A stretch of DNA of 64,000 nucleotides from an uncultured delta proteobacterium (GCA_963769935.1 CAVYNY010000007.1:160001-224000); one strand, 5' to 3'. Positions 41,985 to 63,265 are shown, counted from the first letter of the stretch. The notes: generated by a model from the sequence alone, not told the origin. Numbers and translations are program-made.

Positions 41985-43622
41985 TTACCGGGCGGCGGTT
42001 TTGTCGTTGCGGTCGAAATGTTCATTCATGAATTTCGCAAGGTCTGATGTGTCGAATGTGAATTTCATGTTTTTCCTGAATTTAGCGAGGTCGTCATACA
42101 AAGCTGAAGCGCTCTGATATCTTACCTCTTTTTTCTTTGCCAGGCATTTCATAACGATGTCATTGAGTTCGGCCGGGATCCCCTCTCTCGCTTGCATTAA
42201 AGGTTCGATCTCCAATGTTGGAATAGCTCGAATAGCTTCCACATCCGTGTCAAAAGCGTAGACTTTTTTTCCACTGATAGTTTCATAGAGAACCAGACCA
42301 AGGGCATAAATGTCGGTTCTTTGGTCGATGGGTTCTCCTAGTGATTGCTCGGGGGATAAATAAGCCAATTTTCCTTTAATGACGCCGGCCAGGGTTAGGC
42401 TCGGCTCGGATATTGCCTTGGATATGCCGAAATCGCTTATTTTTACCTCGCCTTCATAGGAGATCAGCATATTTTGCGGACTGATATCCCGATGGATAAT
42501 TTCAAGGGGTTGGCCGCTGTCGTCATCCCGCCGGCTGTGAGAATAATCCAGGCCTTTGCATATTTTGGAAATGATGAATACGGAATGTTCAATGGGCAGC
42601 CCCTTTCCCAAAGCTGTCAGGATTTCCTTTAAATTTTTCCCATGGATATATTCCATGGCAATGAAATAGGCGTTTTCGATATTGCCGTAGTCGAAAATTT
42701 GAACAACATTGGGGTGTTGTAATAGCGCGGCCAGGCGCGCTTCCCGGGTGAACATCTTGATGAATTCCGAATTTCCAGCCAGGTGCGGCAGGATGCGTTT
42801 TATGGCAACCTTTCTTCGAAAACCGTCTTCCCGTTCGTAATCCGCCAAAAACAATTCGGCCATTCCGCCCTGGGCAACCTTTTGACGAATCAGATAGGGC
42901 CCGATGCGCTCCATGTTTGCAATTTCCTGCTTGATTTTTAACACCCTGGCTTTGGCCCTGCGGTCATGCCAGAAAATTATCGCAACGGCTAAGACAGCAA
43001 GCAGAGCGATCCCGGAAAAATATATGCTCCGTGAAAAATTTATGAATCGATTAAGATCGGCGGTTGAAAGGTCGATATAGACCGCTCCGATCTTCACATT
43101 AGAAAACGTTATATCTTTAAAAAAACCGATATCTTCCGTGTTGTCCGGTAAATGATTTGCAGTTACCGTGACTTCGTCCCTTACAGCGATCGGTTTTTGA
43201 TTCTGAGGGGGCTCGAACTTACCAACTCTCGGTTCAGCGCCTGCCTGCGCCAGAATCGTATTTGTGTGATCAGTAATCACTGCGAAATTAAGGCTTTTGA
43301 TCTTCTCCAGTTCTCTGATTTCAACGCTAAGGGCAAGCTGCTCTTTTTCCAATACCAATGGTGCGCTTTTGGCTGCCAAATCGGCGGTAGCTGCGAGACC
43401 TTGCTGATAAAGATCATTTCTTGCCCGCTCAACGCCGGAGCGATAAACAAAATAGCCGGCTAAACCGGCAACCAGCCAGACAGCGAGGCAGAGGACGATT
43501 GTTTTGCCATTGCGGCGCATAAATTCCATTTCTTTTATATTTTTTGATATTCGGTTGAAAATGCTCGTTGAAAATTCCTTTACTTTTACCGCCGTCGTTG
43601 ACGCAATATCGGTCGCAAACAT
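41985..43622 (-). CDS. Membrane receptor Ser/Thr kinase (TM - periplasmic domain - TM - kinase)
   Basis: GGMAELF, VAIK, HRDISPQN, DFG and YLSPEQ. Two TM helices. SD AGGAGG before 43622. Confidence 0.93.
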   Translation of the reverse strand: MFATDIASTTAVKVKEFSTSIFNRISKNIKEMEFMRRNGKTIVLCLAVWLVAGLAGYFVYRSGVERARNDLYQQGLAATADLAAKSAPLVLEKEQLALSVEIRELEKIKSLNFAVITDHTNTILAQAGAEPRVGKFEPPQNQKPIAVRDEVTVTANHLPDNTEDIGFFKDITFSNVKIGAVYIDLSTADLNRFINFSRSIYFSGIALLAVLAVAIIFWHDRRAKARVLKIKQEIANMERIGPYLIRQKVAQGGMAELFLADYEREDGFRRKVAIKRILPHLAGNSEFIKMFTREARLAALLQHPNVVQIFDYGNIENAYFIAMEYIHGKNLKEILTALGKGLPIEHSVFIISKICKGLDYSHSRRDDDSGQPLEIIHRDISPQNMLISYEGEVKISDFGISKAISEPSLTLAGVIKGKLAYLSPEQSLGEPIDQRTDIYALGLVLYETISGKKVYAFDTDVEAIRAIPTLEIEPLMQAREGIPAELNDIVMKCLAKKKEVRYQSASALYDDLAKFRKNMKFTFDTSDLAKFMNEHFDRNDKTAAR

Positions 43623-43671
43623 CGGACAACCTCCTAACGAATACTGAGTTTAGGGATTATTAATTCATGGC

Positions 43672-44550
43672 CTAGGCGGTCAATTTTTGAATAATTTCAG
43701 CGCATCGCAATATGATCTGACGTTTGATCCCATAAAGATCCTGGCGGTCGGCAATCTCCGATAAATCAATTCCTTTTAAGTCAGCATGGCATTCAGCGTT
43801 CTGCCCGGGATTCGAAATCTTCGCGATCGATTTTTCGTAAAGATGGGGGTGATAAAATCCATCGGCATTGACGGTTTTATTTGTGCCGCACATGGGACAC
43901 ATGATCACGTGTTTATCCGCTCTCGGCGCCTCTTGACGCCGGTGCCAGAAAAAATCCTTCAGCAGCCGTGGGTTGACGTTGATTTTTCGCCAGCCCAGCA
44001 TTACCATGAACAGCAATAGACATAGAAAGCTTAAAGCCGCGGCGATCATAAATTGATTTCTGACCATTACCGTTTTTGCGGCTGAAAGCGCAAGGTAAAT
44101 TTCACCAATTTGGGTGCCGGCATAATGGATGCCTGATGTAAAACTGACAATTTTTTTTTGGTTTGGAAATTCGCCTTTCCAAAAGGTTATTTGATCCTTT
44201 TTTTGCACGGAATCATTTCTGACGGGTTTGACATTTTGGGCACCCGCAACGGCTACAATTTCATCGCGATAATCGGACACCGCCAGATATAGGATGTCCT
44301 TTCTTTGCCCGATATCCATTACCTGTCTACGGATGGCCGGCGTATCTTTTTCTAAAAGCTTAACACTGATTTGTTTGGCAAGTCCGCTAACGATATTGAT
44401 TCCGGATTCCTGAATGCCGGAATTGATGTGCTCCAATCGAAGGGCCGTGACGGCGTAGCCCAGGGCTATCAATATCCACCAGACGACAATACCCAAAATT
44501 AAATGGCGGGAGTTAAAACCTGCTCTTTTTAGCCGGCTCAAGTCCATCAA
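43672..44550 (-). CDS. Membrane protein with the same periplasmic domain as the adjacent kinase and a cytoplasmic CxxC tail
   Basis: Two TMs. FTSGIHYAGTQIGEIYLALS resembles FFKDITFSNVKIGAVYIDLS in the kinase. CPMC motif in the tail. Confidence 0.7.
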   Translation of the reverse strand: MMDLSRLKRAGFNSRHLILGIVVWWILIALGYAVTALRLEHINSGIQESGINIVSGLAKQISVKLLEKDTPAIRRQVMDIGQRKDILYLAVSDYRDEIVAVAGAQNVKPVRNDSVQKKDQITFWKGEFPNQKKIVSFTSGIHYAGTQIGEIYLALSAAKTVMVRNQFMIAAALSFLCLLLFMVMLGWRKINVNPRLLKDFFWHRRQEAPRADKHVIMCPMCGTNKTVNADGFYHPHLYEKSIAKISNPGQNAECHADLKGIDLSEIADRQDLYGIKRQIILRCAEIIQKLTA

Positions 44551-44913: not shown

Positions 44914-45933
44914 GTGATGACTTATATTCAGATTATTCTATTAGCCGCTCTGATAATGCCGGCAGGTTTACTTTCCTGCGTTCCTATCGGTCCAGCCTCA
45001 GGGTATTCTTCCTCAGGGGACTCATCCCAAAATATTTTTAGATCAAAGGAATTTATCGTCTATCAGTTGCCGACAGCCGCAACGTCGACTGAATTGGCCG
45101 AACGGTTTCTGGGAGACAGCCATAAGTCGTGGCTGATCGAGGAGTCCAATCCAGGCGCTGGCTTTAACAGCGGCGAGCTGATTGTCATTCCGCTGAATCA
45201 TTTCGACAGGGGTGGATTGTGGAGAGACGGTATACAGACAATACCCATCCTCACCTATCACCGGTTTTCCAATGATTGCAGTTCACCGCTTTGCGTGGGC
45301 AGCAGCATTTTTGAGAATCAGATGAGATATCTGAAAGAAAATGATTTCCATGTCATTTCACCGGAGCAGCTGCTCGCCTTTCTGGAATACAGGGAGGGCT
45401 TGCCGAAAAAATCCGTATTGATCACTATGGACGATGGATATCGTTCAGCTTATGAGATTGCTTATCCCATCCTCAAAAAATATGGCTTCACGGCGACGTT
45501 TTTTATTTATACGAATTTTGTCGGCGTATCCAAAATGGCCATTACCTGGGATCAACTGAAAGAACTGAAAGCAAATGGATTTTCAATCGGTTCTCATACC
45601 ATAAGCCACAGCGATTTGACCCAGCGCGAGGACGGGGAAACCGAGGCTGATTGGATGGCCAGGATTGATAAGGAACTTCACGGTTCCAAGCAAATACTCG
45701 ATAAAAAATTGAACCAGGATACGATATCGCTGGCCTATCCGTACGGCAAATATGACCAACGTGCCATCGAAACTGCCCGAAAAGCCGGCTACAAAATGGC
45801 GATGTCGGTCCAAAGAGGCGGCAACCCCTTTTTTGCCGATCCCCTGTATCTGCGAAGGGACATGATATTGAAAAAGGATCTGCAAACATTTATCTCCAGA
45901 CTGAATACTTTTAAACCCATGTCGTTAAAGTGA
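44914..45933 (+). CDS. Lipoprotein: LysM-like domain plus CE4 polysaccharide deacetylase
   Basis: Lipobox LLSC. ILTYH, ITMDDG, SHTISH and AYPYG. The N-terminal LAERFLGD..W.I..N..GELIVIP is LysM-like. Confidence 0.88.
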   Translation: MMTYIQIILLAALIMPAGLLSCVPIGPASGYSSSGDSSQNIFRSKEFIVYQLPTAATSTELAERFLGDSHKSWLIEESNPGAGFNSGELIVIPLNHFDRGGLWRDGIQTIPILTYHRFSNDCSSPLCVGSSIFENQMRYLKENDFHVISPEQLLAFLEYREGLPKKSVLITMDDGYRSAYEIAYPILKKYGFTATFFIYTNFVGVSKMAITWDQLKELKANGFSIGSHTISHSDLTQREDGETEADWMARIDKELHGSKQILDKKLNQDTISLAYPYGKYDQRAIETARKAGYKMAMSVQRGGNPFFADPLYLRRDMILKKDLQTFISRLNTFKPMSLK

Positions 45934-45940
45934 GAATGCC

Positions 45941-47365
45941 ATGAAAACAAGAGCTGGAATTATCGGTATTATCTTTTTGTGCGTGCTGGCAAACGGTTGC
46001 GCAACCTTGGGGACCAAGTCGTCCCCCAAAAATCGTGAGCAGTTGGCTGATGAGTATCAGACCAAAGCCCGGGATTACGAAGCGAAAGGTGAATTGGTTG
46101 AAGCGCTGGAACAATACAGACTTTGGCTCACGGTAGATCCTGAAAACAAATCGGCTCAGGATAAAAGCACGCAGATCGGACAGGAACTTCAAAAGTTGGC
46201 CGAAAGCCATTATCAAAGCGGACTGGCCTACTATCAAAAGGGGCAATACACTCCGGCCCGCCAGGAATTTTTAACTGCCCTCAGAGATGATCCGGATCAC
46301 CAGGGGGCAAAAGAGATGCTTATAGCCAATCGAGAGTTGGAACAGGTCGACAGATATGTATTGCATACGATCCAACCGAATGAGACCCTTGCAACATTGG
46401 CCAAACAATACTACGGCGACTATAAGAAATTTCATTTGATCGCCATATACAATGGCATCGAGGACGCCACTAAAGTCAGGGTCGGACAGCAGATTAAGGT
46501 TCCGGTCTTCGAGGGGGTCCCGATTATGGCAGATCCATCGAAAATTCTGACTGTTTCCGGCAAAGCTCCTCAAGCAAAACCGGAAGAAATCATAACGGTT
46601 AAAGGTTTCGTCGTCCATACCGTTAAAGCTGAGGATACCCTGTCGAAGCTGGCAAAAGAGTATTACGGCGATTTAAAAAAATTTGATCTCATTGCCAAGT
46701 TTAACGACATGCAGGTATCCGACAGTCTGCAGGTCGGACAGGAGATTAAAATCCCTGAGGTCGAGGGCGTGCCGTTTCTGGCACCTGAAGCCAAAGAGCT
46801 GACAGAGATCAAAACGCCGGAAGCGGAGGCCCCGGCGGCGAAAGAAGCACAGCCGGAAAAAGCTGCAGAGGAGCCGGCAACAGCCAAAGTGGAGGCCTCC
46901 GAAGAAGACCAGGCGGCCGCTTACCGGAAGTCCGGCATTGAGTTCTATCAGGATAAGAACTATGCGGACGCGGTAGTAGAACTGCAGAAGGCTTTAAGTG
47001 CAAATCCGGATGATAAGGTTACTAAGGATTATCTGTCGTTAGCCTACTTTGAACAAGGAGTTGCTTCCTTTAACAAAGAGGACTATTCTCAGTCCATCAA
47101 GGCGTTCGAAACCTCCCGGCAGTTCAACAGCAGCTGTGAAAAATGTGAATCGTATCTAAAGCAAAGCCAGGAAAAATTCAAAGATCTTCATTATCGCCAA
47201 GGGGTCTCGTATTTCGGGCAGGAAAAACTGGCCGAAGCCATCAGCGAATGGCAACAGGTTTATAACATGGATCCGAACTACAAGGACGTCAGCAAAAATA
47301 TATCCAAGGCTCAAACATTGCTGCAACGCCTTGAGGAAATACAAAAGAGCAATCAAAAAAAATAA
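45941..47365 (+). CDS. Lipoprotein with TPRs and two LysM domains
   Basis: Lipobox ANGC. HTIQPNETLATLAKQYYGD and HTVKAEDTLSKLAKEYYGD. TPRs on both sides. Confidence 0.9.
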   Translation: MKTRAGIIGIIFLCVLANGCATLGTKSSPKNREQLADEYQTKARDYEAKGELVEALEQYRLWLTVDPENKSAQDKSTQIGQELQKLAESHYQSGLAYYQKGQYTPARQEFLTALRDDPDHQGAKEMLIANRELEQVDRYVLHTIQPNETLATLAKQYYGDYKKFHLIAIYNGIEDATKVRVGQQIKVPVFEGVPIMADPSKILTVSGKAPQAKPEEIITVKGFVVHTVKAEDTLSKLAKEYYGDLKKFDLIAKFNDMQVSDSLQVGQEIKIPEVEGVPFLAPEAKELTEIKTPEAEAPAAKEAQPEKAAEEPATAKVEASEEDQAAAYRKSGIEFYQDKNYADAVVELQKALSANPDDKVTKDYLSLAYFEQGVASFNKEDYSQSIKAFETSRQFNSSCEKCESYLKQSQEKFKDLHYRQGVSYFGQEKLAEAISEWQQVYNMDPNYKDVSKNISKAQTLLQRLEEIQKSNQKK

Positions 47366-47515: not shown

Positions 47516-49009
47516 ATGGCCAACCAAACCGCAACCACGTCGATTGCGCCCGCCCCCCCGCCGATCAGGGTGAGAATCGAAAAAGGCACTGCCGACAAAA
47601 GCGAGTATGTGTTTACCCAACCATTTCGCTGCGGGCGCGATGAAAGCTGTGAGGTACGACTTGCCGATACGGCGGTGAGTAGATTTCATGCCGAATTTTG
47701 GTTTTCGGCCGGAAGATGGTGGATACTCGATTTGCAAAGTGGCAATGGATCGTACCTGGATGGAACGAAAGTCGAACGTGCGCCGATAGCAACCCTGGCC
47801 AGAGTCCAGCTGGGCGATGATGGTCCGGTGCTTCTCTTGACGGTTGAACGGGTTCCAACGGCTGAAGACGTTAAAGAAGATAAAAAGGTTCAAGACCGGC
47901 CCCGCTCACTTGAACACTACCAGGAGCACTATTTCCAGGATACTGAAAAAGGCAATGTCGGCGAGCATACGATGATGATCCGGCAAGCCTTTAAAAGGGT
48001 CCAAAACCGCCAGAGAGGAAGATTTATCGCTGTCATCTCGATTTTGAGTTTTTTGGTTCTAGCCGCCGGTATATATGCTCTGTACAAACATCAGGAAGTT
48101 TCCAAGCAAAAATTATTGGCCGAGGATATTTTCTATGCCATGAAATCCATGGAGCTTGAGTTTGCGCCGCTTGTAAAGATGGCCAGACTCAGCCAGGATG
48201 CCAACCTTCTGGCTAAGGTCCAGGAGTACCAAGCCCGCCGCAAAGTGCTGGAAAACAAGTATGACAAGTTTATCGAAGCACTTGAAATCTATAAGAAAAG
48301 CATCAGTCCCGAAGAAAGGATCATTCTGCGTATCGCCCGTATTTTCGGTGAGTGTGAAATAAAAATGCCTGAGGGTTTTGTGCACGAAGTGTTGAATTAC
48401 ATTGAGAAATGGAAAGCCACCCCCAGGCTGAAAATGGCTGTTCAACGGGCCCGGCAAAGAGGCTACACCACCAAAATAGCTGAAACCTTGCTGGCTCATG
48501 ATTTGCCCCCCCAGTATTTTTATCTGGCCCTTCAAGAGAGTAATTTTGACCCCGAGGCTTGCGGACCGGAAACCAAATGGGGCATTGCAAAAGGAATGTG
48601 GCAATTCATACCGGATACAGCTGTTGTTTTCGGTCTTCGCACCGGCCCCCTGCAAGATCAGCGACGGCCGGATCCGCTCGACGATCGCCATGATTTTGAA
48701 AAGTCGACCGAAGCGGCCGCCAAGTACATTAAGGCCATTTATGATACGGATGCCCAGGCTTCCGGGCTGCTGGTTATGGCCTCCTACAACTGGGGTGAAA
48801 GACGGGTGAACCGGCTCATTAAAACAATGCCTGAAAATCCACAGGAAAGAAATTTCTGGCTTCTGCTGGACAAATATAAAAAGCAAATTCCCCGTGAGAC
48901 TTACGACTATGTGTTTTCCATCTTTTCAGCCGCCGTCATCGGCGAAAACCCCGCTCTTTTCGGCTTTGACTTTGAAAATCCGCTGATGCATATCGAAAGC
49001 CGATTGTAA
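47516..49009 (+). CDS. FHA - TM - lytic transglycosylase (SLT/MltD-like) fusion
   Basis: FHA GR, VSRFHA and SGNGSY. TM FIAVISILSFLVLAAGIYAL. SLT motifs QESNF, GMWQFIP.TA, ASYNWGE and ETYDYV. Confidence 0.9.
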   Translation: MANQTATTSIAPAPPPIRVRIEKGTADKSEYVFTQPFRCGRDESCEVRLADTAVSRFHAEFWFSAGRWWILDLQSGNGSYLDGTKVERAPIATLARVQLGDDGPVLLLTVERVPTAEDVKEDKKVQDRPRSLEHYQEHYFQDTEKGNVGEHTMMIRQAFKRVQNRQRGRFIAVISILSFLVLAAGIYALYKHQEVSKQKLLAEDIFYAMKSMELEFAPLVKMARLSQDANLLAKVQEYQARRKVLENKYDKFIEALEIYKKSISPEERIILRIARIFGECEIKMPEGFVHEVLNYIEKWKATPRLKMAVQRARQRGYTTKIAETLLAHDLPPQYFYLALQESNFDPEACGPETKWGIAKGMWQFIPDTAVVFGLRTGPLQDQRRPDPLDDRHDFEKSTEAAAKYIKAIYDTDAQASGLLVMASYNWGERRVNRLIKTMPENPQERNFWLLLDKYKKQIPRETYDYVFSIFSAAVIGENPALFGFDFENPLMHIESRL

Positions 49010-49531: not shown

Positions 49532-50887
49532 ATGTGTAAAAAGATCATTTATCTTCGGATACTTTTTATATTTGGACTAGTGATGCTTTCGGGCTGCACG
49601 TCGTATATGAAAGGTACCATGGATTTGGAGCGGGAAAATTATGAAGCTGCCATCGAAAACTTCCAGCAGGAACTGTCAAAAAACCCAAACAACTGGCAGG
49701 CCAGGCAGCAACTCGGGTTCGCTTATCTGAAAACCGGTCGGAATGACCAGGCAATTGCCGAGTTGCAATACGTCCTGGGGCAAGAGCCGGCTGACGTAAC
49801 GGCCTTGAGCTACGCCCCCAAGGATGTCGAGCGCGGGCTGGGGCAAAAACCGGATGCCCCTTACGCGAATTATTACCTGGGACTGGCGTATTTGCGCAAC
49901 GGACAGCGAAGTGAGGCCGTTGAAACCTGGCGGACCTACAATAATCCGCGTGAGCCGATACTGGCAGACGAAATCAAAAAACAGGTAACGGTCGTCGATA
50001 TCTATGACAGTCTGTATCTTGCCAGGCAAGCCCTGGAAGAGGAGAAAAAGCTTGAAACGACGCCGCCCAAACCGGGAACGGTCGCCGTATTTTATTTCAA
50101 GGATCTCAGCCCGGACAATCGCTTTCGCTATCTGCAAAAAGCAATGGCTGAAATGATTATCACGGATTTGACGAAGGTGAAATCTTTGCAGGTTCTGGAA
50201 CGGACGCGCGTACAGTATCTTTTGTATGAGATGAAAATGGGACAGACAGGCATTGTTGAAGAAAAAACGGCACCTCGAGCGGGTCGGCTGCTCGGGGCCG
50301 AAAACCTGCTCGTGGGCAGCCTCGAACCCGGCAGCATAGAAGCCAAGGCCAGCGTAGCTTCCACGACATCCAAGGATGTGGTCGGCGCCTTTTCAGTCAA
50401 AGCGGAGCAGGAAGAGTTTTTTGTGCTGGAAAAAGAAATAGTCTATAACGTATTGAAAGTATTGCCGGTTACTTTCACTCCGGAGGAAGAAGCGCAATTT
50501 AAAGGGTATCACACCAAAAACCTGCAGGCCGTCCTTTACTTCGGCCAGGGACTCGATGCCCTGGATGCGGGTCAATGGAAAGATGCCAGGGTTTCCTTCA
50601 AAAGGGCCACTGAAGAGGACCCGGACTTTAAATTGGCCCAATATTATCTGGAGCGATGCCCTGCTGCAACTGTCGCCAGTTTAACTACCCTGGGTGGGAT
50701 GACGGTGGGGCAAATGGCCGACAATGTCGAAGCGGCTGTGGATCAGGCCTCAAGTGCTCAAGCGGCCATAACATCCGGCCAGGGAACAGGGCCTGGAGAA
50801 GGGGGTGTTCCTTCTGGCCCAACGCCGGCACCGGCGCCGACACCGACTCCGGGACCTACTACCGGAAATGTATCCATCAGCTGGTAG
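49532..50887 (+). CDS. TPR lipoprotein with a CsgG/TolB-N-like domain
   Basis: Lipobox LSGC; TPRs; VAVFYF..MIITDL..LQVLER..GRLLGAENLLVGS. SD AGGAGG. Confidence 0.82.
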   Translation: MCKKIIYLRILFIFGLVMLSGCTSYMKGTMDLERENYEAAIENFQQELSKNPNNWQARQQLGFAYLKTGRNDQAIAELQYVLGQEPADVTALSYAPKDVERGLGQKPDAPYANYYLGLAYLRNGQRSEAVETWRTYNNPREPILADEIKKQVTVVDIYDSLYLARQALEEEKKLETTPPKPGTVAVFYFKDLSPDNRFRYLQKAMAEMIITDLTKVKSLQVLERTRVQYLLYEMKMGQTGIVEEKTAPRAGRLLGAENLLVGSLEPGSIEAKASVASTTSKDVVGAFSVKAEQEEFFVLEKEIVYNVLKVLPVTFTPEEEAQFKGYHTKNLQAVLYFGQGLDALDAGQWKDARVSFKRATEEDPDFKLAQYYLERCPAATVASLTTLGGMTVGQMADNVEAAVDQASSAQAAITSGQGTGPGEGGVPSGPTPAPAPTPTPGPTTGNVSISW

Positions 50888-54126: not shown

Positions 54127-55311
54127 ATGAACTACGGTCGGTACGAGGTTGTTGATGAAATTGGCCAGGGTTCAATGGGGGTTGTTTATCGGGCCTATGA
54201 TCCCCAAATCAATCGGCACATTGCTTTGAAGCTATTGCGCCAGGACCGGGTCACCAGCGAGGAATTGGTGCAGCGATTTCTCAAAGAGGCCCAGGCCATG
54301 GGAGGGCTTTCGCATCCCAACATCGCCACCGTTTACGATACGGGACAGGATCACGGCACCATCTTCATTGCCATGGAAATATTGAGGGGTAAATCCCTCA
54401 AAGACCTTATGGGGGAAAAGAAATTAAGTCTTAATGAAATTGTTCATATCGGCGTTCAGGTCGCCGAAGCGCTTGACTTTGCCCACCAGAAAGGCATTGT
54501 GCACCGGGACATAAAGCCCTCCAATATCATTATAGATCCTAAAGGCAATGCAAAAATCACAGACTTCGGCATTGCGCACATCGAGGATCCTGCCGGCACC
54601 CAGCAAACGATACCCGGACAAATTTTAGGCACCCCCCTTTACATGTCGCCCGAGCAGGTCATGAGCAATCCCGTGGACGGGCGCTCGGATCTTTATTCTT
54701 TGGGGGTTATCCTATATGAGATGACCACCGGAACCCCTCCCTTTAAAGGCGATAACCTCGCCGCCATCTTCCAGGCAATTTTGCAGGGGACACCCCGGGC
54801 GCCGGAGCTGGACGGATCTCCTGTTTCCCGGAACCTCTCCAATCTGATTATGAAGAGTTTGAACAAAGATCCCGCCAAGCGATTTCAGACGGGCCTGGAG
54901 ATGGCACAACCGCTCAAAGGTTGTCTTCAGAGGAGGCAGTCGGATACCATCCGGGGCGTGAGGCGTCCTGAAAAACGCAAACGCCTTTTTCCCATGGTGT
55001 TGGCAGCCATAGTACTCCTTGCCGCAGCCGCCGGATTGATTTATTTTAAGACCGGCAAAAGTACCCCGCCGGAAAACAAGCTTTTAGCAGTTTTAAAAGT
55101 CGAGAGCGATCCCTCGGGCGCCAACGTTTTTTTAAACGACTCCCTTAAAGGCCAAACTCCTCTGACCATTGATCTGCCTCTCGGGAAATATGAAATTCGT
55201 TTAAGTCGCCAAAATTTCAATGAATGGGAAGCTCAACTTCAACTGGATGAAGCGGGTGAAACGCCTTTGTTTGTAAGGCTTATTGCCGTGGAAAAAAATC
55301 AGAACCCATAA
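54127..55311 (+). CDS. Ser/Thr kinase - TM - PEGA domain
   Basis: GQGSMGVV, IALK, HRDIKPSN, DFG and GTPLYMSPEQ; TM; PEGA SDPSGANVFLN..GQTP. Confidence 0.95.
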   Translation: MNYGRYEVVDEIGQGSMGVVYRAYDPQINRHIALKLLRQDRVTSEELVQRFLKEAQAMGGLSHPNIATVYDTGQDHGTIFIAMEILRGKSLKDLMGEKKLSLNEIVHIGVQVAEALDFAHQKGIVHRDIKPSNIIIDPKGNAKITDFGIAHIEDPAGTQQTIPGQILGTPLYMSPEQVMSNPVDGRSDLYSLGVILYEMTTGTPPFKGDNLAAIFQAILQGTPRAPELDGSPVSRNLSNLIMKSLNKDPAKRFQTGLEMAQPLKGCLQRRQSDTIRGVRRPEKRKRLFPMVLAAIVLLAAAAGLIYFKTGKSTPPENKLLAVLKVESDPSGANVFLNDSLKGQTPLTIDLPLGKYEIRLSRQNFNEWEAQLQLDEAGETPLFVRLIAVEKNQNP

Positions 55312-55332: not shown

Positions 55333-57288
55333 GTGATTAAAATGAGGTCCCTTATAAAAATGCTTGCCTGCTCGGCAGCACTTGTCGGCCTCGCTGTCAT
55401 CATCAGCGAGCCGGGCTACGGCCAAATTGCTGCCGGCCGACAGGCACCCGCCTTTGCCTTGGAGGATATCGGCGGTAAGCACCATGAGCTGGCAACGCTG
55501 GAAAACACGCCGATGGTTATTCTCTATTTTTTTGACGTAACGTCCCGACCCAGTCAAGAAGGCCTGTTGGCGCTGGATAATCTTGCCGGACGCTATGCGC
55601 AGGCCGATTTGAAAGTGTGGGCGATCACCCGTTCCGCCAAAGAAAATGTGTCTGAATTTGTTTCCCGGAGCCGAATTTCCTACCCGGTTCTCGTAGACAA
55701 TTCCAAAGTCAGCGATCTTTACCAGGCCCGCTTCGTGCTGCCGACGGTTTGCATCCTTGGCCCCGGGTTGAAAGTGCTGGATTATATACAGGGAGGCGGC
55801 AAAACCACCGAAATTATGCTGGTGAAGTTGGCTGAAAAAGAATTGCAGCGTAAACAGACAACGATCGCGAGAGAGATCAGTGAAGATGTTGTCCGCAAGG
55901 ACCCGCAAAATGTAGATGCTAAAATGGTCAAGGGATACGCGGAACTCAAAGGCGGCGATCTGGCTGCCGCTGAAAAAACCTTCAACTCCCTGTCTCAAGA
56001 CGCGGGCCAGGGCAAAGTTCTGGGCGAAGAGGGGATGGTTTCCGTGTATGCCGAGAAAGGACAGACCCAAGAGGCTTTGGACCTGGCCGAGAAAGTAGAG
56101 CAAAAAGCACCGGATCGGGGGTATGTGAATACCGTCAAGGCAGATATTTTATATGCCAAAGGCCAAAAAAAAGAAGCCCAGGCCGAATACCGCAAGGCCG
56201 TGAGTAAAAAATCGGCCGCTCCTTTTCAAAAGGCGGTTTCGCTGAATAAGCTCGGGCGCCTGCAGGCCAGTATCGGGAATTTGTCCGGGGCCCGGGAGCT
56301 TTATGATCAGGCGGTGGCAATTGATCCTTATTACATTGAAGCAACCGCCAATTCTGCCAAGACTTACGAAAAAGAGGGCAAGTGGGATAAAGCCCTGGGT
56401 GCGTACCGCCAGGCTCTGGCAGTCGATAAAGATGATGTGTTTGCCGCGACCCTGGCGAAAAGAGCTCAGATGATGGTTGCGCTCCAGAATGATGTTGAGA
56501 GAAAAAAACGCATGGACGCCCTGGTCAAGCGCCTGGCCGAGCGCTATCGCAGCCAGCAGCAATCCAAAACCAAAGCAGCGGAAGACTCCTGGACGTCGCG
56601 GCCCATGGTGATGACTTTCGTCGATTTGCAGGAAAAAGGCGGATTATCCGAACGGGATGGATTGCCCACCGTTTTAATGTTTCAACTGTCCGATGAGCTC
56701 AATGCATCCGGCCGAATTCATGTGGTCGAACGGATCTTGATTGAAAAACTGCTCGAGGAATTAGATCTCGGCTCCTCGGACTTGGCCGATCCCGATACGG
56801 CCTTAAAACTGGGCAAAATACTGGCCGCTAAAATCATCGGTACCGGTTCTATTTACTATCTTCCGGCCGGCAATATTCTGAGTCTGCGCTTGATCGATAC
56901 CGAAACCTCGGAGCTGCCCAAGATCATCAACCGCCAGTTCGGTCCGAAAGTGTCGCTGGATAAAGAACTGAATCAGCTTTATCACGAAATTCTGACAGCT
57001 GTTATGCAAACTTATCCGTTGCGAGGCTACATTGTGCAGGTATCTTCGGATCGGATTATGATCAACCTGGGATCAAAACAGGGTGTGAGCCAGGGCACTA
57101 AATTTGAGGTATTAAAAGAAAAGGAACCCATCGAGTACAAGGGTAAAATCCTGCACGGTGCACCCGAAGCCGTTGCATTATTGCAGGTGGAGCAAGTCGA
57201 GCCGGATCTTTCTTACGCGCGCATTCTGAGCAAGCAAATCCCCATCGCCCGCGATGACAAGATTCAGGAGAAAGTGGGAAAACTCTAG
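55333..57288 (+). CDS. Exported redoxin-fold, TPR, CsgG-like and FlgT-C-like multidomain protein
   Basis: APAFALED..YPVLVD thioredoxin fold with SRPS in place of CxxC; TPRs; HVVER..LLEEL..LGKILAA; INLGSKQGV..G.KFEV. Confidence 0.8.
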   Translation: MIKMRSLIKMLACSAALVGLAVIISEPGYGQIAAGRQAPAFALEDIGGKHHELATLENTPMVILYFFDVTSRPSQEGLLALDNLAGRYAQADLKVWAITRSAKENVSEFVSRSRISYPVLVDNSKVSDLYQARFVLPTVCILGPGLKVLDYIQGGGKTTEIMLVKLAEKELQRKQTTIAREISEDVVRKDPQNVDAKMVKGYAELKGGDLAAAEKTFNSLSQDAGQGKVLGEEGMVSVYAEKGQTQEALDLAEKVEQKAPDRGYVNTVKADILYAKGQKKEAQAEYRKAVSKKSAAPFQKAVSLNKLGRLQASIGNLSGARELYDQAVAIDPYYIEATANSAKTYEKEGKWDKALGAYRQALAVDKDDVFAATLAKRAQMMVALQNDVERKKRMDALVKRLAERYRSQQQSKTKAAEDSWTSRPMVMTFVDLQEKGGLSERDGLPTVLMFQLSDELNASGRIHVVERILIEKLLEELDLGSSDLADPDTALKLGKILAAKIIGTGSIYYLPAGNILSLRLIDTETSELPKIINRQFGPKVSLDKELNQLYHEILTAVMQTYPLRGYIVQVSSDRIMINLGSKQGVSQGTKFEVLKEKEPIEYKGKILHGAPEAVALLQVEQVEPDLSYARILSKQIPIARDDKIQEKVGKL

Positions 57289-57300
57289 CTGGAGAAAGCC

Positions 57301-57801
57301 GTGTCGCTGCCAAAGCAACTCATAGGACTGTCACTGCTGCTGCTTGCGTTTTTATCCGGATGCACCCCGCTGCCTAAGCCAAGTGTGGACCGGCAGACGT
57401 CGGCGGTTGCTGTCTGGGATTTGGAAAACTTGAATCCGGACGAGGGCATCGGGACCGATATGGGCGAACTTTTGGCGTCGGAAGTGATCGAGACGTTCAA
57501 AGAATCCAGTACATTTCAGGTAGTCGAAAGGCAGCGTCTCATCCTGGCGCTGGAAGAGTTGAATCTGGGCAGCTCTTCTTTGGCCAACGAGGCGACGCGC
57601 TTGAGAATCGGCCGCATCGTGGGCGCCCGTTTCATGGTATTCGGCGGTTATTTCGTGCTCGGCGATATGATGCGTCTGGATTTGCGATTGGTGGAGGTTG
57701 AAACCGGCGCGATCGTCAAAGCGGCAGAGAAGACAACTGCTGCCGGTGATTTGAACGGCTGGCTGAAAGCCACGCGGCAGGCAGCCGAGGAATTGATTTA
57801 G
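57301..57801 (+). CDS. Small CsgG/HfaB-like lipoprotein
   Basis: Lipobox LSGC; VAVWDL, FQVVER..LEEL, IGRIVGARFMVFG and LRLVEVETG. Confidence 0.85.
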   Translation: MSLPKQLIGLSLLLLAFLSGCTPLPKPSVDRQTSAVAVWDLENLNPDEGIGTDMGELLASEVIETFKESSTFQVVERQRLILALEELNLGSSSLANEATRLRIGRIVGARFMVFGGYFVLGDMMRLDLRLVEVETGAIVKAAEKTTAAGDLNGWLKATRQAAEELI

Positions 57802-57802
57802 A

Positions 57803-59515
57803 ATGATCGAGGGGGGACTATTGCCCACGATGCGTTTCAAAATCGTTAACACGGATGATCCCAATCTTGTTTTTGAGACAGATCGGCGAGAATTCGCACT
57901 CGGCAGATCCAAAGAGTGTGAGATCGTCATCCAAGATCCTTCTATTTCAAGGGTTCAGGCCCGGGTTCGGTTTGAAAGCAACCGTTTTTACATTGAAAAT
58001 ACAGGGCAAAATCCCGTTCAGATAAATGGCGCACCCACAGCCGGCCAGTTTCTCAATGACGGTGATCAAATTACGCTGGGCACAACCAGTTTCCGGTTTC
58101 AAGCAGACCGGACTTTTGATGTAACACCGCATCCGATCGCTTTTGACGAGAAAACAATCGCCGTTGGCTCCCTGCCGAATCATACATTGGGTCCACGCCT
58201 GGTTCTCACCACCGATGCCGGCGACACGCAAGCATACCCCATGAATAAGGACCGCCTTATCATCGGTCGGTCCGAAGATGCAGACATCGCTTTGCAGGAT
58301 CCCTCCATTTCGCGCCAACACGGCATAATCGAACAGCGGGAAGACGGGTATTTTGTCAAAAACTTGAGCCAAACCAATCCGTTATTGCTCAATGATGCGA
58401 CCGTTTCCGACAATCGCCTTTATTCAGGGGATCTTATTCGCGTCGGCTCTTTTTATTTGACTTTCGTATCAGACCGGCCCGAGGACGCCAAACCCATCGA
58501 GGAGAAGATCATCACTCAGCAAAAGGGACCGGGGTGGGCGCTCTGGCTGGCAGCGGCCTGCTTAATTCTGATTGCTGGAAGCTTCTTGCTTTACCGGCAT
58601 GCTTACTATCCCTGGAAAATTAATCGGAACCTGAAATCAATTGCCGGTCAAATTGCGGCGGGCAAATATCAGCCGGCCCAAGACGCGCTGCGGCGTCTGC
58701 TCACTAAAGGCGTCTCGCCGGACAGCAGGCGCAGGGCCAGAGAGCTGCTGGCTCAGACGGCGCTGGCGATTGTGCAGAATCTGGCCGAAGCCGGCAAGCT
58801 TCCGGAGGCGGAACAATACCTGATTGCCTATCTGAAAGAATATGGCGGCGGCAAAGAAGCGGACACTCTCTGGGAGCGCCTGGATATGTACCGGGTCGAA
58901 ATCGCTCAAAACCTGGAAACCGCCTCGCAGTATCAGGCCGCTTTGGGCCTGTATGCAGCGGTGAGAGAAGACAGCCCCTATTATGGCCGCGCCCAGCAGG
59001 GCATCCGGCGAATTTGGCTTGCGTCCCAGCAGGAACAACGCCGGGATCAGAATGTGGCCCAATTGCTTCAGGAGGCTGATCAGGATTTCAGAGCCAAACG
59101 CTACCTGACGCCGGTCAACAGCAATGCCTATTCTGTTTATCAGGCCGTTCTGGCCGCAGATCCTGAGAACTCCATTGCTCTGGAGCGCATCGAGCAAATG
59201 AAAGACTTCTATCTCAGATACGGCGAAGAGTATTTTAATAAAAATAGCTGGCGCAATGCCCTGACCTATTTTGAACGATATGTTTTTATGGCACCCGATT
59301 CACCGGACATCCAGCAGAAAATCGACCTCTGCCGCGCTAAGTTGAAAGCATCCGATTCGAACGGTCCGCAGACCGGGGCAAAATCAGCCGCACCGGAAAA
59401 GAGCCGCGAGCAGGTCAAAAAATTACTCGAAGAATCCGGCGTTGAAAGTTCGCGCATCATCAAATTTCTTTATGAGGATCCGGGCGGTGAAAAAGATCCC
59501 GAAAAACCCTGGTAG
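57803..59515 (+). CDS. FHA-FHA - TM - periplasmic TPR protein
   Basis: Two GRS..I.DPSISR FHA motifs; TM WALWLAAACLILIAGSFLLY; helical TPR C-terminus. Confidence 0.88.
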   Translation: MIEGGLLPTMRFKIVNTDDPNLVFETDRREFALGRSKECEIVIQDPSISRVQARVRFESNRFYIENTGQNPVQINGAPTAGQFLNDGDQITLGTTSFRFQADRTFDVTPHPIAFDEKTIAVGSLPNHTLGPRLVLTTDAGDTQAYPMNKDRLIIGRSEDADIALQDPSISRQHGIIEQREDGYFVKNLSQTNPLLLNDATVSDNRLYSGDLIRVGSFYLTFVSDRPEDAKPIEEKIITQQKGPGWALWLAAACLILIAGSFLLYRHAYYPWKINRNLKSIAGQIAAGKYQPAQDALRRLLTKGVSPDSRRRARELLAQTALAIVQNLAEAGKLPEAEQYLIAYLKEYGGGKEADTLWERLDMYRVEIAQNLETASQYQAALGLYAAVREDSPYYGRAQQGIRRIWLASQQEQRRDQNVAQLLQEADQDFRAKRYLTPVNSNAYSVYQAVLAADPENSIALERIEQMKDFYLRYGEEYFNKNSWRNALTYFERYVFMAPDSPDIQQKIDLCRAKLKASDSNGPQTGAKSAAPEKSREQVKKLLEESGVESSRIIKFLYEDPGGEKDPEKPW

Positions 59516-59728
59516 TTTCCGGCGGGGCGGCCATGCAATTTAAATATTTCCTCAGACACTTAACTGAGCGATATCGACAATTTGTTGTCGATGTTGATTA
59601 ACCGCTGGCAGTTCTATGTATGAATGAACTAAAATTAAAAATGACTAAAATGAGCTAAAATTTTGGAATCCTATCGATTTAAAAAGACAGAATACCGCAA
59701 ATATTCAATATTCGATTTTCAATCTTCA

Positions 59729-61366
59729 ATGAAAAAGCGCAGGGCCTACCTTTTAATTTCTGTGATCATCGTCATACTGGCCGCCTGTGCTATGACGGAG
59801 ACGGCAGAGACACCGCAACCCGAAGTGGCCGACAAAAGCCTGCTGCCGCACAAGGTCGCTATTCTGCCGTTTGTCAATCAAACCTCCAATCCGAAAGCTG
59901 CCGCAGTTATGCGACGGATGTTTTACAATTTCTTCAGTTCTCTGAATTACCTGGATGTGGAACCCTCTTTCATCGATGAGAAGCTGGCCGGGACCGATGT
60001 TTATCAAAAAATCACGGCCGGCGAAGCTGTTTCCCCCCAGCAGCTGGGCCAAATGCTGGGCGTCGATGCCGTCGTGTTCGGTGAGGTTCTCAGCCTCGGT
60101 AAAGTTTATGCAGTATTATATTCCGATACGGAGGCCAGCCTCAGGGCCCGGCTGGTCAGCTGTCAATCCGGCCAAACCATTTGGGAGCTTGAACATACAG
60201 CGCACCTCAGAGAAGGGGACGTACCCTTAAGCATTACCGGGCTGGCCGCGGCGATTATCAAGACGGCTATCAGCCATGAAATGGCTGATGTCATGCAGGC
60301 TGCTTCCAAGCTCTGTATGCAGATGATTGCCACCATTCCCGACCGGCCGGCGCTCGCTGAATCTCCGCCTCGGATCCAGGTGATGGTTCACAACGGCGCC
60401 GGTACGCTCCTGCGGCCGGGGAGTCTTTTGAAAGTGGTCATGGTCGGTGATGAAAAAATGGAAGCCAGCTGGAGTGTCCCGCCCTTGATTGAAAATCTTG
60501 CGATGAAAGAAGATGAACCGGGAGTCTATTTTGCCAGCTATCGCATTAAACCGCAGGATCGGCTGCCATACGGCCGGCTGGTAGGTCATCTGCGATCAAA
60601 AAAAGGGCTCCAGAGCCAATGGGTGGATATTTTGGGACCGATAACGATCGGTGAACCGACCGTGCTGCCGTCGGTCATCTCCGGGGACCAGGTACTGGAG
60701 TCTTCGCAGAGTCCCTATCTGGTGAAAGATGCGCTGGTGGTGCTGCCCGGTGCGAAGCTCACGATGAATCCCGGCACGGTTGTATGGTTCCGTCGCATGG
60801 GAATCGTTGTAAAGGGCGAACTGAATATTATGGGATCGGCAGACAACCCGGTTCACCTGGCGGGTATGGGTGATTCCGGCTGGAAAGGGATCCTGCTGGA
60901 TCAGAGCCGGTCGGACAATGTTTTATCCTTCGCAACGATATCCAATGCTGAATTCGGATTCAAAGCCGCCGGCTCCAATGTTAAATTTCAGCATTGCCTT
61001 CTGCAGGAAAATAAATGGGGAATCGTGCTTGACAATACGTCAGCCGAAATACATGACAGCCTTATCCGCACCTCTGAAAAAACAGGCATCTCCGCGCGTA
61101 CGTCTCAACTGCTGGTAAAAGGATCAACCATCTCAGAGAATGGTTTTGGCGGATTTTTACTGGAAAATTCAACGGCCCGGATCGAGCAGAACAATATTTC
61201 AAATAACGGCAGCTGGGCCATTAAGGTAGTTCAGAGCCCGGGCCCAGTCGGCGCGGCCAATAACTGGTGGGGGAACAAAAATTTTGACCCGGAAACAATG
61301 ATTATCGGACCGGTGAAAATTCAGCCCACCCTGGCTAAACCTCCCGCGATCCAGATGCTGGAGTAA
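59729..61366 (+). CDS. Lipoprotein: DUF799/GNA1162-like domain plus right-handed beta-helix
   Basis: Lipobox LAAC; VAILPF.N..LGVDAVVFG; SPYLV..LT..PG, parallel beta-helix repeats and NNWWG. Confidence 0.8.
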   Translation: MKKRRAYLLISVIIVILAACAMTETAETPQPEVADKSLLPHKVAILPFVNQTSNPKAAAVMRRMFYNFFSSLNYLDVEPSFIDEKLAGTDVYQKITAGEAVSPQQLGQMLGVDAVVFGEVLSLGKVYAVLYSDTEASLRARLVSCQSGQTIWELEHTAHLREGDVPLSITGLAAAIIKTAISHEMADVMQAASKLCMQMIATIPDRPALAESPPRIQVMVHNGAGTLLRPGSLLKVVMVGDEKMEASWSVPPLIENLAMKEDEPGVYFASYRIKPQDRLPYGRLVGHLRSKKGLQSQWVDILGPITIGEPTVLPSVISGDQVLESSQSPYLVKDALVVLPGAKLTMNPGTVVWFRRMGIVVKGELNIMGSADNPVHLAGMGDSGWKGILLDQSRSDNVLSFATISNAEFGFKAAGSNVKFQHCLLQENKWGIVLDNTSAEIHDSLIRTSEKTGISARTSQLLVKGSTISENGFGGFLLENSTARIEQNNISNNGSWAIKVVQSPGPVGAANNWWGNKNFDPETMIIGPVKIQPTLAKPPAIQMLE

Positions 61367-61457
61367 AGTATTCGAGCTCCACAATTTTTGCTCTAAAATT
61401 GAAAAACAGGTCCTCTGGGCTTGGATTCTTTACTTGAGCGCTTAACGGACAGAATAC

Positions 61458-62354
61458 TTAGGATTTGAAAAATTTGCCGAAAATTTTTTTAGCAACTTTA
61501 GGGGAAGCGGTGGTTTTGTTTTCAGCTGGCGGCGGGGTTTCCGGCGCCTGAGGAGGCACATCGGTTCTTTGCAATGGTGCGTCTTCAATTTCTGCCAGAC
61601 GGCCGGCGCCCAAAAACCGGAAGTTGGGTCCGTCGGCGCTCAGGGAGAGGCGACTTTCGGGCTGCAGTGCAGCTTGAGACGGCACGGGCGACCCATTGAT
61701 GGCAACCTGGTTTCGGCCGGTCAGATCTTTTACCCAATATTGTCCCTGATGGAAGAAAATCTGGGCGTGTTGCTCCAAAATACCGGGATGGTCGATGCTG
61801 AAATCACACGCCGGGTTCCGGCCGATGGTGACGGGCAGTTCCTTGAACGTACGCAGGGTCGGCCCATACTGAATGATCAGGGGCATCTTTGTTCTTTCGA
61901 TCTCCATTGCCGGAGCCGGCATCTCCGGCGGAGGCGGGGAAGGGGCCCGCGGAGTTTGAGGTTGAGAAGGCCGGGGCCGATTCATCCGGTCTGCTGGTAT
62001 TTCCGGAGTTTGCTGAAAATCCGCCGGTGATTCAGCAATTTTGGTCAGAAAACTGACTTTAGGCCCACCGTCGGCAAAAAGTAAAATATCGCCGTCTTTT
62101 AAGATTGCTTCGGTTATCCGTGTCCCGTTTAAAAACGTTCCGTTGGTGCTCTGATCAATTAATTTGAAACGATTGCCTTCCCTGACGATGCGAGCATGTT
62201 CGCGGGAAATGATGGCCAGATCTTTTGGGAAGCGCACATGGCAGGACGGCTGACGCCCGATGGATATTTCATTATCAGGAAATTCCTGAATTTCCCCCTT
62301 CATGGGACCCTGAATATGAACCAATTGCATAATAATGAGAGGTGCTTTTTTCAT
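61458..62354 (-). CDS. Cytoplasmic FHA-FHA protein with a Pro-rich linker
   Basis: IGR..ISREHA..STNGTFLNG. Second, degenerate FHA TIGR..ILEQHA. Confidence 0.88.
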   Translation of the reverse strand: MKKAPLIIMQLVHIQGPMKGEIQEFPDNEISIGRQPSCHVRFPKDLAIISREHARIVREGNRFKLIDQSTNGTFLNGTRITEAILKDGDILLFADGGPKVSFLTKIAESPADFQQTPEIPADRMNRPRPSQPQTPRAPSPPPPEMPAPAMEIERTKMPLIIQYGPTLRTFKELPVTIGRNPACDFSIDHPGILEQHAQIFFHQGQYWVKDLTGRNQVAINGSPVPSQAALQPESRLSLSADGPNFRFLGAGRLAEIEDAPLQRTDVPPQAPETPPPAENKTTASPKVAKKIFGKFFKS

Positions 62355-62518
62355 ATTCCCAATGATTCTCCATTTGGCTTGTCGGATTGAATGGCGCTTG
62401 CCTTTATCTGATAAAGTGCTTTAAAGTACCCCTCTCTGTCAAGAAAATAATGAAGAAGAGCTGACTGTCGGTCCCGTCCGGTCCGACAAATCATATAAAT
62501 ATTAACCCCAGGATTTAG

Positions 62519-63265
62519 GTGCAGATGACTATGCTGAACATTAATTTTGCTGGAAAAACCAACATCGGCCTCAAGCGAACCGCCAATGAGGACGTGTTTA
62601 TCATTGAAGGCCAACGGGGATTTTGCCTGGTAGCCGACGGTTTGGGTGGGGCCGCAGCTGGTGATGTAGCCAGCCGGTTTTTTGCCGAAGCAACGGCGGA
62701 AGTATTTCGGCAGGCCGCCGATTTGGATGAAGAAAATGTCGTCAAGCGAGTTCAGGAGTCTTTCCGCCTGGCCCATGATAAAATACGGGATCATATAAAG
62801 ATAAATCCCTTACACAATGGCATGGGGTGCACTGCCGAATTGTTGGCGTTTTCCGATCAAGGGTTTGTTGTCGGACATTTGGGGGACAGCCGGACATATC
62901 GTTTCAGAGACGGCCATTTGAAACAATTGACGCACGACCATTCCCTGGTTCAGGATCAACTTGACAAGGGGCTTATCGGCGAGGAAAAGGCCAGGCGGCA
63001 TCCCCTTAGAAACGTTATTCTCAAGGCAGTTGGTATCGAGGAGGATCTGGCCCTTGATTTGATCCGCGGGCGGACCTACCCCGAGGACCAATTCCTGCTC
63101 TGTTCGGATGGATTGACGGATATGGTCGAAGACGTTGCCATCGGCAAGGTCTTTAACTCACCGATCCCGGCCGGCAAAAAAGTAGACCAGCTCATTGATC
63201 TGGCGCTTGCCGGCGGCGGCAAGGACAATATAACCGTGGTTCTCATAGATATCAAAGGATCATGA
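62519..63265 (+). CDS. PP2C-family Ser/Thr phosphatase (Stp1/PppA-like)
   Basis: R..NED, VADGLGG, GDSR, DHS, LCSDGL and GGKDNIT. Confidence 0.95.
   Translation: MQMTMLNINFAGKTNIGLKRTANEDVFIIEGQRGFCLVADGLGGAAAGDVASRFFAEATAEVFRQAADLDEENVVKRVQESFRLAHDKIRDHIKINPLHNGMGCTAELLAFSDQGFVVGHLGDSRTYRFRDGHLKQLTHDHSLVQDQLDKGLIGEEKARRHPLRNVILKAVGIEEDLALDLIRGRTYPEDQFLLCSDGLTDMVEDVAIGKVFNSPIPAGKKVDQLIDLALAGGGKDNITVVLIDIKGS

Follow-up and report, generated by a model that had tools for sequence, protein, structure and literature searches.

What switches on a type VI secretion system (T6SS) when domain searches of its own locus find no kinase (PpkA), no PP2C phosphatase (PppA) and no TagH? The question is raised by a stretch of 64,000 nucleotides from an uncultured delta proteobacterium (GCA_963769935.1, CAVYNY010000007.1:160001-224000; hereafter the window), which holds the distal half of such a locus and, at 41985-63265, a cluster of fifteen genes that we name g01 to g15 by position. 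A first-pass annotation had described the cluster as one undescribed, phosphothreonine (pThr)-controlled envelope machine, and either as a remote controller of the nearby T6SS or as a stand-alone apparatus. We propose that the cluster is probably the control arm of this cell's T6SS: a threonine-phosphorylation switch (kinase g09, phosphatase g15 and FHA protein g14) that would be fed by an undescribed envelope sensor.

The conserved core and its tie to type VI secretion

The fifteen open reading frames (ORFs) are contiguous and none is interrupted, as first described. Pfam and NCBIfam searches of the window proteins also bear out the two Hanks kinases (Pkinase), the PP2C phosphatase, the lytic transglycosylase (SLT), the CE4 deacetylase, the trypsin-like protease and the lipoproteins with a PD40 beta-propeller or a beta-helix. 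The catalytic motifs are intact in both kinases, in the phosphatase g15, in the protease g08 (H176/D206/S277), in the transglycosylase g05 (QESNF) and in the deacetylase g03. Three expectations hold in part. First, there are five FHA domains in three proteins, but only about three of the five are canonical readers by their residues (none of the 32 aligned family members of g14 has the conserved pThr-binding Ser in the second FHA domain, and in g12 the conserved His is absent from the first FHA domain). Second, three proteins match the CsgG family (E from 1e-11 to 2e-6), but only two have a lipobox, as g10 has a plain signal peptide and no conserved Cys. Third, LysM domains are present, but by Pfam they occur in g04 only (two LysM) and not in several proteins. 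Hydropathy and motif checks identify g03, g04, g06, g07, g11 and g13 as lipoproteins, g08 and g10 as exported, g14 and g15 as cytoplasmic, and g01, g02, g05, g09 and g12 as inner-membrane proteins. The genes fall into four orientation blocks, which rules out a single operon. The gene order is not an assembly artefact, as an independent metagenome contig (L162) repeats g01-g11 in identical order at 79-90% identity. There were no Rfam matches across the window, and a scan upstream of the cluster for sigma54-type motifs found none.

To see what is conserved, we use 79 g10 loci, which come from the best 80 of 156 confirmed stretches in a genome-collection scan with a g10 alignment; many of them are cut by contig ends. 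A core of seven genes recurs in these loci: the tandem FHA protein g14, the PP2C g15, the protease g08, the kinase-PEGA protein g09, g10 and two CsgG-like proteins. The records include Desulfobacterota, Nitrospirota and Bacteriovoracaceae, among others. The kinase g09 is found in 63 of the 79 loci, g11 in 60, g08 in 59, g15 in 37, the g06 family in 32 and g14 in 31; the four tightest families are in 59-77 loci, and an outer-membrane beta-barrel (PF13557) is in 31. In the commonest order, g14 is divergent from g15-g08-g09-g10-g11, with the barrel gene and g06 converging. Also, g08-g09-g10-g11 are contiguous in most loci, and g15, where present (37 of 79 loci), usually lies two genes upstream of the kinase. 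The remaining genes of our cluster are rare there (g05 in 6 loci, g03 and g04 in 3 each, g12 in 2, g01 in 1, and g02 and g13 in none). Judged by gene order, then, the cluster consists of a core that has been rearranged and of three accessory blocks (g01-g04, g05 and g12-g13). The idea of one 15-gene machine did not survive the comparison across genomes, as only about seven genes are co-conserved, but the idea of a conserved trans-envelope pThr module did, with a core order that recurs in dozens of genomes. Hidden Markov models (HMMs) of two unnamed neighbour families of the core have no match in this genome.

The core is tied near-strictly to the T6SS. We sampled 401 genomes of the phylum evenly (at least 90% complete, this genome included) and found g10 in 20 and TssF in 49. 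TssF is present in 20 of 20 g10-positive genomes versus 29 of 381 g10-negative genomes (Fisher p 1e-20, with the caveat that kin are not independent). On a quick TssF tree of 45 of the 49 genomes (four with a fragmented or short TssF were excluded), the g10 label changes 7 times and at least 6 of the changes are forced by starred branches, so the pairing of g10 with T6SS appears to recur on distant TssF lineages. The distribution of g10 itself is patchy by these searches, because full-length orthologs were found in none of 22 genomes from the same genus and in 2 of 18 from the same order. Among the 79 g10 genomes of the collection scan, 65 have TssF and 4 of the other 14 have a TssC-family match. 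In 22 of the 65, a single contig carries both g10 and tssF, with a median gap of 19 kb and a gap below 50 kb in 21 of the 22, and T6SS-related genes lie within 10 kb of the core in 27 of the 79 loci.

The distribution of g14 points the same way. In a panel of 19 core-positive genomes, 29 TssF-only genomes and 31 controls (31 of 352 double-negative genomes), g14 is found in 17, 5 and 0, respectively, that is, in 22 of 48 TssF-positive and 0 of 31 TssF-negative genomes. All of the 31 core loci with g14 are in TssF-positive genomes. Together with accessory genes that sit inside T6SS loci elsewhere (see below), the shared presence of g10 and TssF supports the suggestion of a remote controller of the nearby T6SS.

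The proposed phosphorylation switch and its candidate sensor

The kinase g09 (54127-55311, + strand) has a Pkinase domain (residues 6-254), a transmembrane (TM) segment (287-305) and a periplasmic PEGA domain (322-380). The activation-loop residues T161 and T169 are invariant in 47 sequences. Among the best 60 of its 97 PDB matches, PknB, StkP and PknA lead and PpkA does not appear. The phosphatase g15 (62519-63265, + strand) scores 221.5 bits with NF033484 (cut-off 230). The cytoplasmic protein g14 (61458-62354, - strand) has two FHA domains joined by a Pro-rich linker. The first is intact, with its pThr-binding residues G33, R34, S50 and H53 invariant in 32 of 32 sequences, and the second is degenerate. 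By analogy, g09 would be PpkA-like, g15 PppA-like and g14 Fha-like.

The pathway that these names refer to, PpkA(TagE)-PppA(TagG)-Fha(TagH) with TagF, operates in the H1-T6SS of P. aeruginosa and in S. marcescens, A. tumefaciens and A. citrulli. In this pathway, an envelope input brings about dimerisation and autophosphorylation of PpkA; Fha either becomes phosphorylated or binds phospho-TssL, repression by TagF is lifted, and PppA resets the system (PMC13584744; PMC6082577; PMC12607579). The input protein varies by system: TagQRST, RtkS or TssW (PMC6082577; PMC12607579; PMC13584744). The module described here shares a membrane Hanks kinase with one TM segment and a periplasmic C-terminal domain (g09), a PP2C, an FHA protein with intact pThr-binding residues, envelope-located inputs, and a tagF gene in the T6SS that it would serve. 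However, its kinase has PEGA, its tandem FHA protein g14 is without the C-terminal part of TagH, and in place of TagQRST, RtkS or TssW it has a protease and proteins of the TolB-N/FlgT folds. (No TagR-type periplasmic protein and no TagS/TagT ABC-like complex is among the 15 cluster proteins.) It also comes with extra membrane-spanning FHA proteins, one of which is fused to a lytic transglycosylase, and it can sit away from the T6SS locus or occur without a T6SS. The pathway type is known, and what appears new is the input. We found no match for the envelope input, the tandem FHA protein or the FHA-TM-SLT fusion in the literature searched, with supplements and subscription papers outside the search. 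In the main text of a 2026 review on accessory factors of the T6SS, the terms CsgG, thioredoxin, protease and Desulfo do not occur.

The candidate sensor begins with g08 (53167-54123, + strand), an exported trypsin-like (HtrA-type) protease with an intact triad and no PDZ match. The core marker g10 (55333-57288, + strand) has a periplasmic thioredoxin-like domain, TPRs, and FlgT-like middle and C-terminal domains. Its top Foldseek hits are FlgT (8z5n and 3w1e, E 2e-9 and 3e-9), followed by ResA, and Pfam finds FlgT_C (E 8e-8). Its middle alpha/beta and C-terminal beta domains are like those of FlgT from the Vibrio flagellar H/T ring, but its N-terminus is instead a redox-dead thioredoxin fold with TPRs. 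In that fold, D68-x-x-S71-x-x-S74 stands in place of CxxC and is invariant in 37 sequences, and these serines rule out a role for g10 as a redox enzyme. The small lipoprotein g11 (57301-57801, + strand; invariant C21) has the alpha/beta fold of the TolB-N/LpoB/PelC/CsgG family. Its VIA Z is 13.1 for TolB-N (root-mean-square deviation 2.2, 111 residues aligned), 12.9 for LpoB, 12.3 for PelC, 12.2 for FlgT and 10.9 for CsgG.

The first-pass annotation noted that CsgG forms an outer-membrane pore. Such pores are not supported for the three CsgG-like proteins here, as both CsgG membrane hairpins are absent. The g11 profile aligns to CsgG on either side of the first hairpin, with about 6 residues there versus about 30 in CsgG. 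AlphaFold2 models of g10 (pLDDT 85.7) and g11 (pLDDT 89.4) have tight turns where CsgG has hairpins; for g06, the absence was assessed from sequence only. Nor is there a csgE, csgF, csgA or csgB gene in the window or among the 16 annotated neighbour families of core loci, and the recurring neighbours show no flagellar or curli context. On these models, the CsgG-like proteins are most simply periplasmic interaction modules, possibly ring-forming, and not pores. When g10, g11 and the PEGA domain of g09 were folded together, PEGA scored 0.52 and the best of three controls 0.07 (partner pLDDT at least 79, contact agreement between runs at least 76%), and replacing g10 abolished the placement. Of 157 solved complexes, 116 pass the mark used, as do 2 of 215 mismatches, but only 18 of the 157 pass it with a score at or below 0.60. 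The modelling thus lends weak support to binding of the kinase's PEGA domain by g10.

Two more lipoproteins may form the outer end of the sensor. The core-associated g06 (49532-50887, + strand) has a CsgG-like domain between TPRs and a Pro/Thr-rich tail; members of its family have variable C-termini and mostly lack a lipobox. In g07 (50955-52799, + strand; the ORF is open from 50805), a conserved N-terminal domain precedes a variable passenger, here the PD40 beta-propeller. This N-terminal domain is common to 11 larger lipoproteins from 8 core loci, two of which have Ig, beta-helix or PKD domains as passengers; in the ESM Atlas it gave only leads below 0.9. From this variation we infer that the g06 tails and g07 passengers look like exchangeable recognition tips.

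We propose the following mechanism. The variable-tipped g06 and g07, together with g11, would sense a cue that arises at the surface of the cell or in its wall, perhaps contact or damage. The lipoprotein g11 and the periplasmic scaffold g10 would then cluster g09 via its PEGA domain, and g08 might tune or reset the complex of g10, g11 and kinase. The kinase would autophosphorylate and then phosphorylate a T6SS target. Binding of the pThr by the first FHA domain of g14 would lift TagF repression and license assembly of the membrane complex, as in Pseudomonas and Serratia. The FHA-TM-SLT protein g05 would be drawn to the same pThr spot and open the peptidoglycan locally, and g15 would turn the signal off. 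The genes g01-g04 and g12-g13 would be optional, additional input blocks.

Copies without a T6SS and competing readings

Several observations weigh against the view that the cluster controls this T6SS. In this genome, g10 and tssF are 54 kb apart, and unrelated genes separate the T6SS from the cluster over about 20 kb (in another genome, G097, the gap is 282 kb). The T6SS could also be served by other kinase and FHA genes of this genome, or by its second PP2C gene. No protein in it exceeds the cut-off for canonical TagH (TIGR03354; g14 is best, with 53 bits of 120), and the barrel-family HMM has no match in it (assembly 96.7% complete). Among the T6SS genomes of the phylum sample, 29 of 49 are without g10, and a further search at E 1e-12 in 5 T6SS genomes still missed it in 4; therefore, g10 is not required by the phylum's T6SSs in general. 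Conversely, TssF and TssC are both missing from 10 of the 79 genomes with g10, most of which are fragmented. Fragmentation is not at issue in G087, a single 3.17 Mb chromosome record in which the core is present and TssF, TssC, TssK and g14 were not found; the T6SS markers were likewise not found in G757 and G795, which have g10. Finally, 6 of 29 metagenome loci with g05 (those of at least 10 kb) are without T6SS or core genes.

The strongest alternative takes the core for a general sensor of envelope stress, which in this cell would act on transcription (e.g., of T6SS genes) or cyclic-nucleotide signalling and would not control assembly directly. Copies without a T6SS adjoin genes for FHA-FHA-sigma54 activators and FHA-GAF-HisKA proteins (in G087, L054 and L056, where they follow the core, and in L063), and FHA-GAF-like genes occur in L094. 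With a query that matches in 23 of 80 genomes, g14 was not found with these T6SS-less copies. The T6SS locus itself has an FHA-cyclase gene (11775-12719), and pairs like g03/g04 occur with Cache-cyclases, including in two T6SS-less genomes. On the other hand, Pfam and NCBIfam find no DNA-binding protein among the 15 cluster proteins, g14 occurs exclusively in TssF-positive genomes (22 of 22 in the panel), and the T6SS locus has tagF, whose product is a post-translational regulator that acts on Fha (PMC13584744). So we consider this explanation unlikely for this genome. Judging by gene neighbourhoods, the sensor is portable, because T6SS-less copies adjoin FHA-sigma54 activators, and the T6SS is its main but not its only partner. 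Across 301 genomes of the phylum of G087, g10 is in 6, with T6SS markers in 3 and not in the other 3. We also note that two loci (L158 and L159) have diverged (about 35% identical) g08-g09-g10-g11-g06 genes with large unannotated lipoproteins; TssF, TssC and g14 were not found in their genomes.

Another alternative is that g10, g11 and g06 are structural: a ring like that of FlgT or PelC would brace or position the T6SS membrane complex and hold the kinase constitutively, with no cue. This would fit the match of the C-terminal half of g10 to FlgT and the matches of g11 to the ring-forming PelC, FlgT and CsgG, and part of what TssW and RtkS do is to position or stabilise PpkA (PMC12607579; PMC6082577). 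But the core persists in T6SS-less genomes, the monomeric TolB-N and LpoB score on par with the ring formers for g11, and the variable tips of g06 and g07 suggest ligand recognition. We think that a purely structural role is quite improbable.

Accessory blocks, surrounding genes and wider meaning

If the core is the control arm of the T6SS, what are the accessory genes for? The kinase g01 (41985-43622, - strand; likely start 43520) has a Cache-like domain between two TM segments (sCache_3_2, E 4e-4) and then a Hanks kinase domain (Pkinase, E 7.5e-39) with the kinase motifs present. Its neighbor g02 (43672-44550, - strand) is a paralog of the sensor part of g01 (BLAST E 4e-11), with the same TM-Cache-like-TM layout, no enzyme domain and no Pfam match at 1e-3. 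The lipoprotein g03 (44914-45933, + strand) is a CE4 polysaccharide deacetylase (PF01522, E 4e-29) with a lipobox and the expected motifs. Its partner g04 (45941-47365, + strand) is a TPR-LysM-LysM-TPR lipoprotein by Pfam and motif checks. In g05 (47516-49009, + strand), a cytoplasmic FHA domain is joined by a TM segment to a periplasmic MltD-type lytic transglycosylase domain, which matches 8rhe (E 2.5e-10) with the catalytic Glu in register. By Pfam and topology checks, g12 (57803-59515, + strand) is FHA-FHA-TM-periplasmic TPR. Its partner g13 (59663-61366, + strand; likely start 59729) is a lipoprotein with a GNA1162-like domain, of the same fold family as the CsgG-like proteins, and the beta-helix.

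Of these, g05 bears most on the proposed mechanism. MltE of E. coli and TagX of Acinetobacter are peptidoglycan cutters tied to assembly of the T6SS membrane complex (PMC13584744), and we propose the same job for g05. The difference is that g05 is an inner-membrane MltD-type SLT with a cytoplasmic FHA domain, so that its recruitment could be phosphorylation-gated. The suggestion of FHA-focused wall opening is plausible for this one gene. Few genomes of the phylum have g05 (2 of 331; in the panel, 2 of 19 core-positive, 1 of 29 TssF-only and 0 of 31 control genomes). Among the 29 metagenome loci of at least 10 kb that have g05 (51 shorter loci were left out of the count), 16 have T6SS genes, 18 have core genes and 23 have either; in L111, g05-g12 follow vgrG.

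The first four genes look like a second input, judging from their neighbours. In L170, L205 and L209, homologs of g01 are flanked by the FHA gene and the PP2C gene of the core, and g02 homologs adjoin them in L170 and L205. The deacetylase g03 is in 6 of 19 core-positive, 3 of 29 TssF-only and 2 of 31 control genomes of the panel. Pairs like g03-g04, which accompany Cache-domain kinases or cyclases, occur in L097, L098, L100, L108, L113-L115 and L156, and are beside g14 in L097, L098, L108 and L115. In T6SS genomes in which g10 was not found (L098 and L115), a cNMP-binding (cyclic nucleotide-binding)-kinase-PEGA fusion lies by a Cache-domain cyclase, g03, g04 and g14, and might be an alternative, cyclic-nucleotide input; in G417 and G507 (g10 not found), a PEGA kinase with a cNMP-binding domain adjoins a Cache-cyclase. 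We also note a kinase-TPR gene with a LysM protein at L006:8255-11226 (G000:C11:502255-505226), a pair that resembles the kinase gene and the small lipoprotein gene next to g03/g04 in L108 and in L156. As for the other block, g12 is inside T6SS loci in L102, L111 and L196, and g13 (E<=1e-40) is in 4 of 19 core-positive (2 full length), 1 of 29 TssF-only and 0 of 31 control genomes.

These counts also raise the possibility that the region is a mosaic of independent signalling blocks in one island, in which only the g14/g15/g09 trio concerns the T6SS. Accessory genes are in at most 6 of the 79 core loci, and this genome has an unlinked pair of g12-g13 paralogs (44% and 57% identical) among housekeeping genes (G000:C1:107755-110921, L004:15755-18921), of which the g12 paralog (G000:C1:107755-109233) has one FHA domain only. 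Also, g14 occurs without g10 in G417, G507 and G359, and the two are on separate contigs in G511 and G428. Nevertheless, every accessory block occurs inside T6SS or core loci of unrelated genomes: L102/L103 reads tssH-g12-g13...g14-g15-g08-g09-g10-g11, and in L156, vgrG is followed by the barrel gene, the g06 family, g11, g10, g09, g08, g15, g14, g04, g03 and a kinase. Given also that g08-g09-g10-g11 are adjacent in most loci and that placement of PEGA in the fold control depends on g10, a mosaic seems very unlikely. Last, the cluster might be a free-standing apparatus for secretion or attack that uses outer-membrane pores of the CsgG type. This idea could draw on the three CsgG-family matches, the beta-barrel gene of homologous loci and the T6SS-less copies, but it is already largely refuted: the hairpins are missing, the T6SS tie is near-strict, the cluster encodes no ATPase, no secretin, no pilin and no inner-membrane platform, and the barrel was not found in the genome. 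In a contact-killing context, the Tad-like Kil system of Myxococcus also has many FHA proteins and lipoproteins (PMC8460266), and our cluster resembles it in being rich in both; membership in Kil/Tad is ruled out, as there is no secretin, CpaF ATPase, TadB/C platform or pilin among the 15 proteins.

The T6SS half in the window (53-22185, + strand) runs from the end of tssF through tssG, tssH, a TssB-TssC fusion, the FHA-cyclase and vgrG to DUF2169 and PAAR genes; tssJKLM, tagF, tagJ, tssABC, hcp and tssE lie just upstream of the window. The TssB-TssC fusion (9979-11562; L019:4170-5735) comes besides a normal tssB and tssC. A more diverged fusion (about 23% identical) adjoins g14 in 12 of 79 core loci. 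The protein might act as a regulator that resembles a sheath and is linked to the FHA protein. The FHA-adenylate/guanylate cyclase gene is a possible second output of the pThr signal. Three unnamed genes open the locus (L002:3840-6808; G000:C7:143840-146808). The first two match a single ORF of 794-835 amino acids in L046 and L050, and the first gave only IBR-like scores of at most 0.85 in the ESM Atlas. The third has a homolog that matches T6SS_FHA_C weakly (E 1.6e-4), a hint of a split Fha at the head of the locus. Two TPR-methyltransferase genes (5819-8703) have homologs, 50-60% identical, beside tssH or vgrG in L053, L116, L117 and L212. At 18285-20091, the gene for a PAAR-like protein that is extended at its C-terminus precedes a TsiV-type immunity gene, and the two likely form an antibacterial effector-immunity pair. 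The interval between T6SS and cluster (22399-41604) holds defence-like RES, two TIR, TPR-S and nucleotidyltransferase genes and MFS transporters, and the GC fraction is 0.43 at 24-26 kb. An O-acetylation pair (MBOAT and AlgX/SASA) is directly downstream of g01 on the same strand.

How T6SS assembly is triggered and positioned has been answered only in a few Proteobacteria (TagQRST, RtkS, TssW, TslA). The core would be a conserved and unrelated input module for the T6SSs of Desulfobacterota and their neighbours, and the g05 fusion would link the phospho-signal to local opening of the peptidoglycan. The T6SS-less copies beside sigma54 activators suggest that the same sensor serves other outputs. 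More speculatively, the module could be a portable trans-envelope sensor (FlgT/TolB-fold proteins, interchangeable tips and a protease) that writes one pThr mark for swappable FHA adaptors: the tandem FHA protein for T6SS firing, the FHA-TM-transglycosylase for wall opening at the same spot, and FHA-sigma54 proteins for transcription in T6SS-less Nitrospirota. We consider this wider reading less likely than not. If true, it would establish a new kind of contact-sensing signal system in bacteria and provide the first example of wall opening for a secretion machine that is gated by phosphorylation. It has been proposed that T6SSs influence partner choice in syntrophic sulfate reducers (PMC10553843), and therefore a T6SS sensor would matter in these organisms too.

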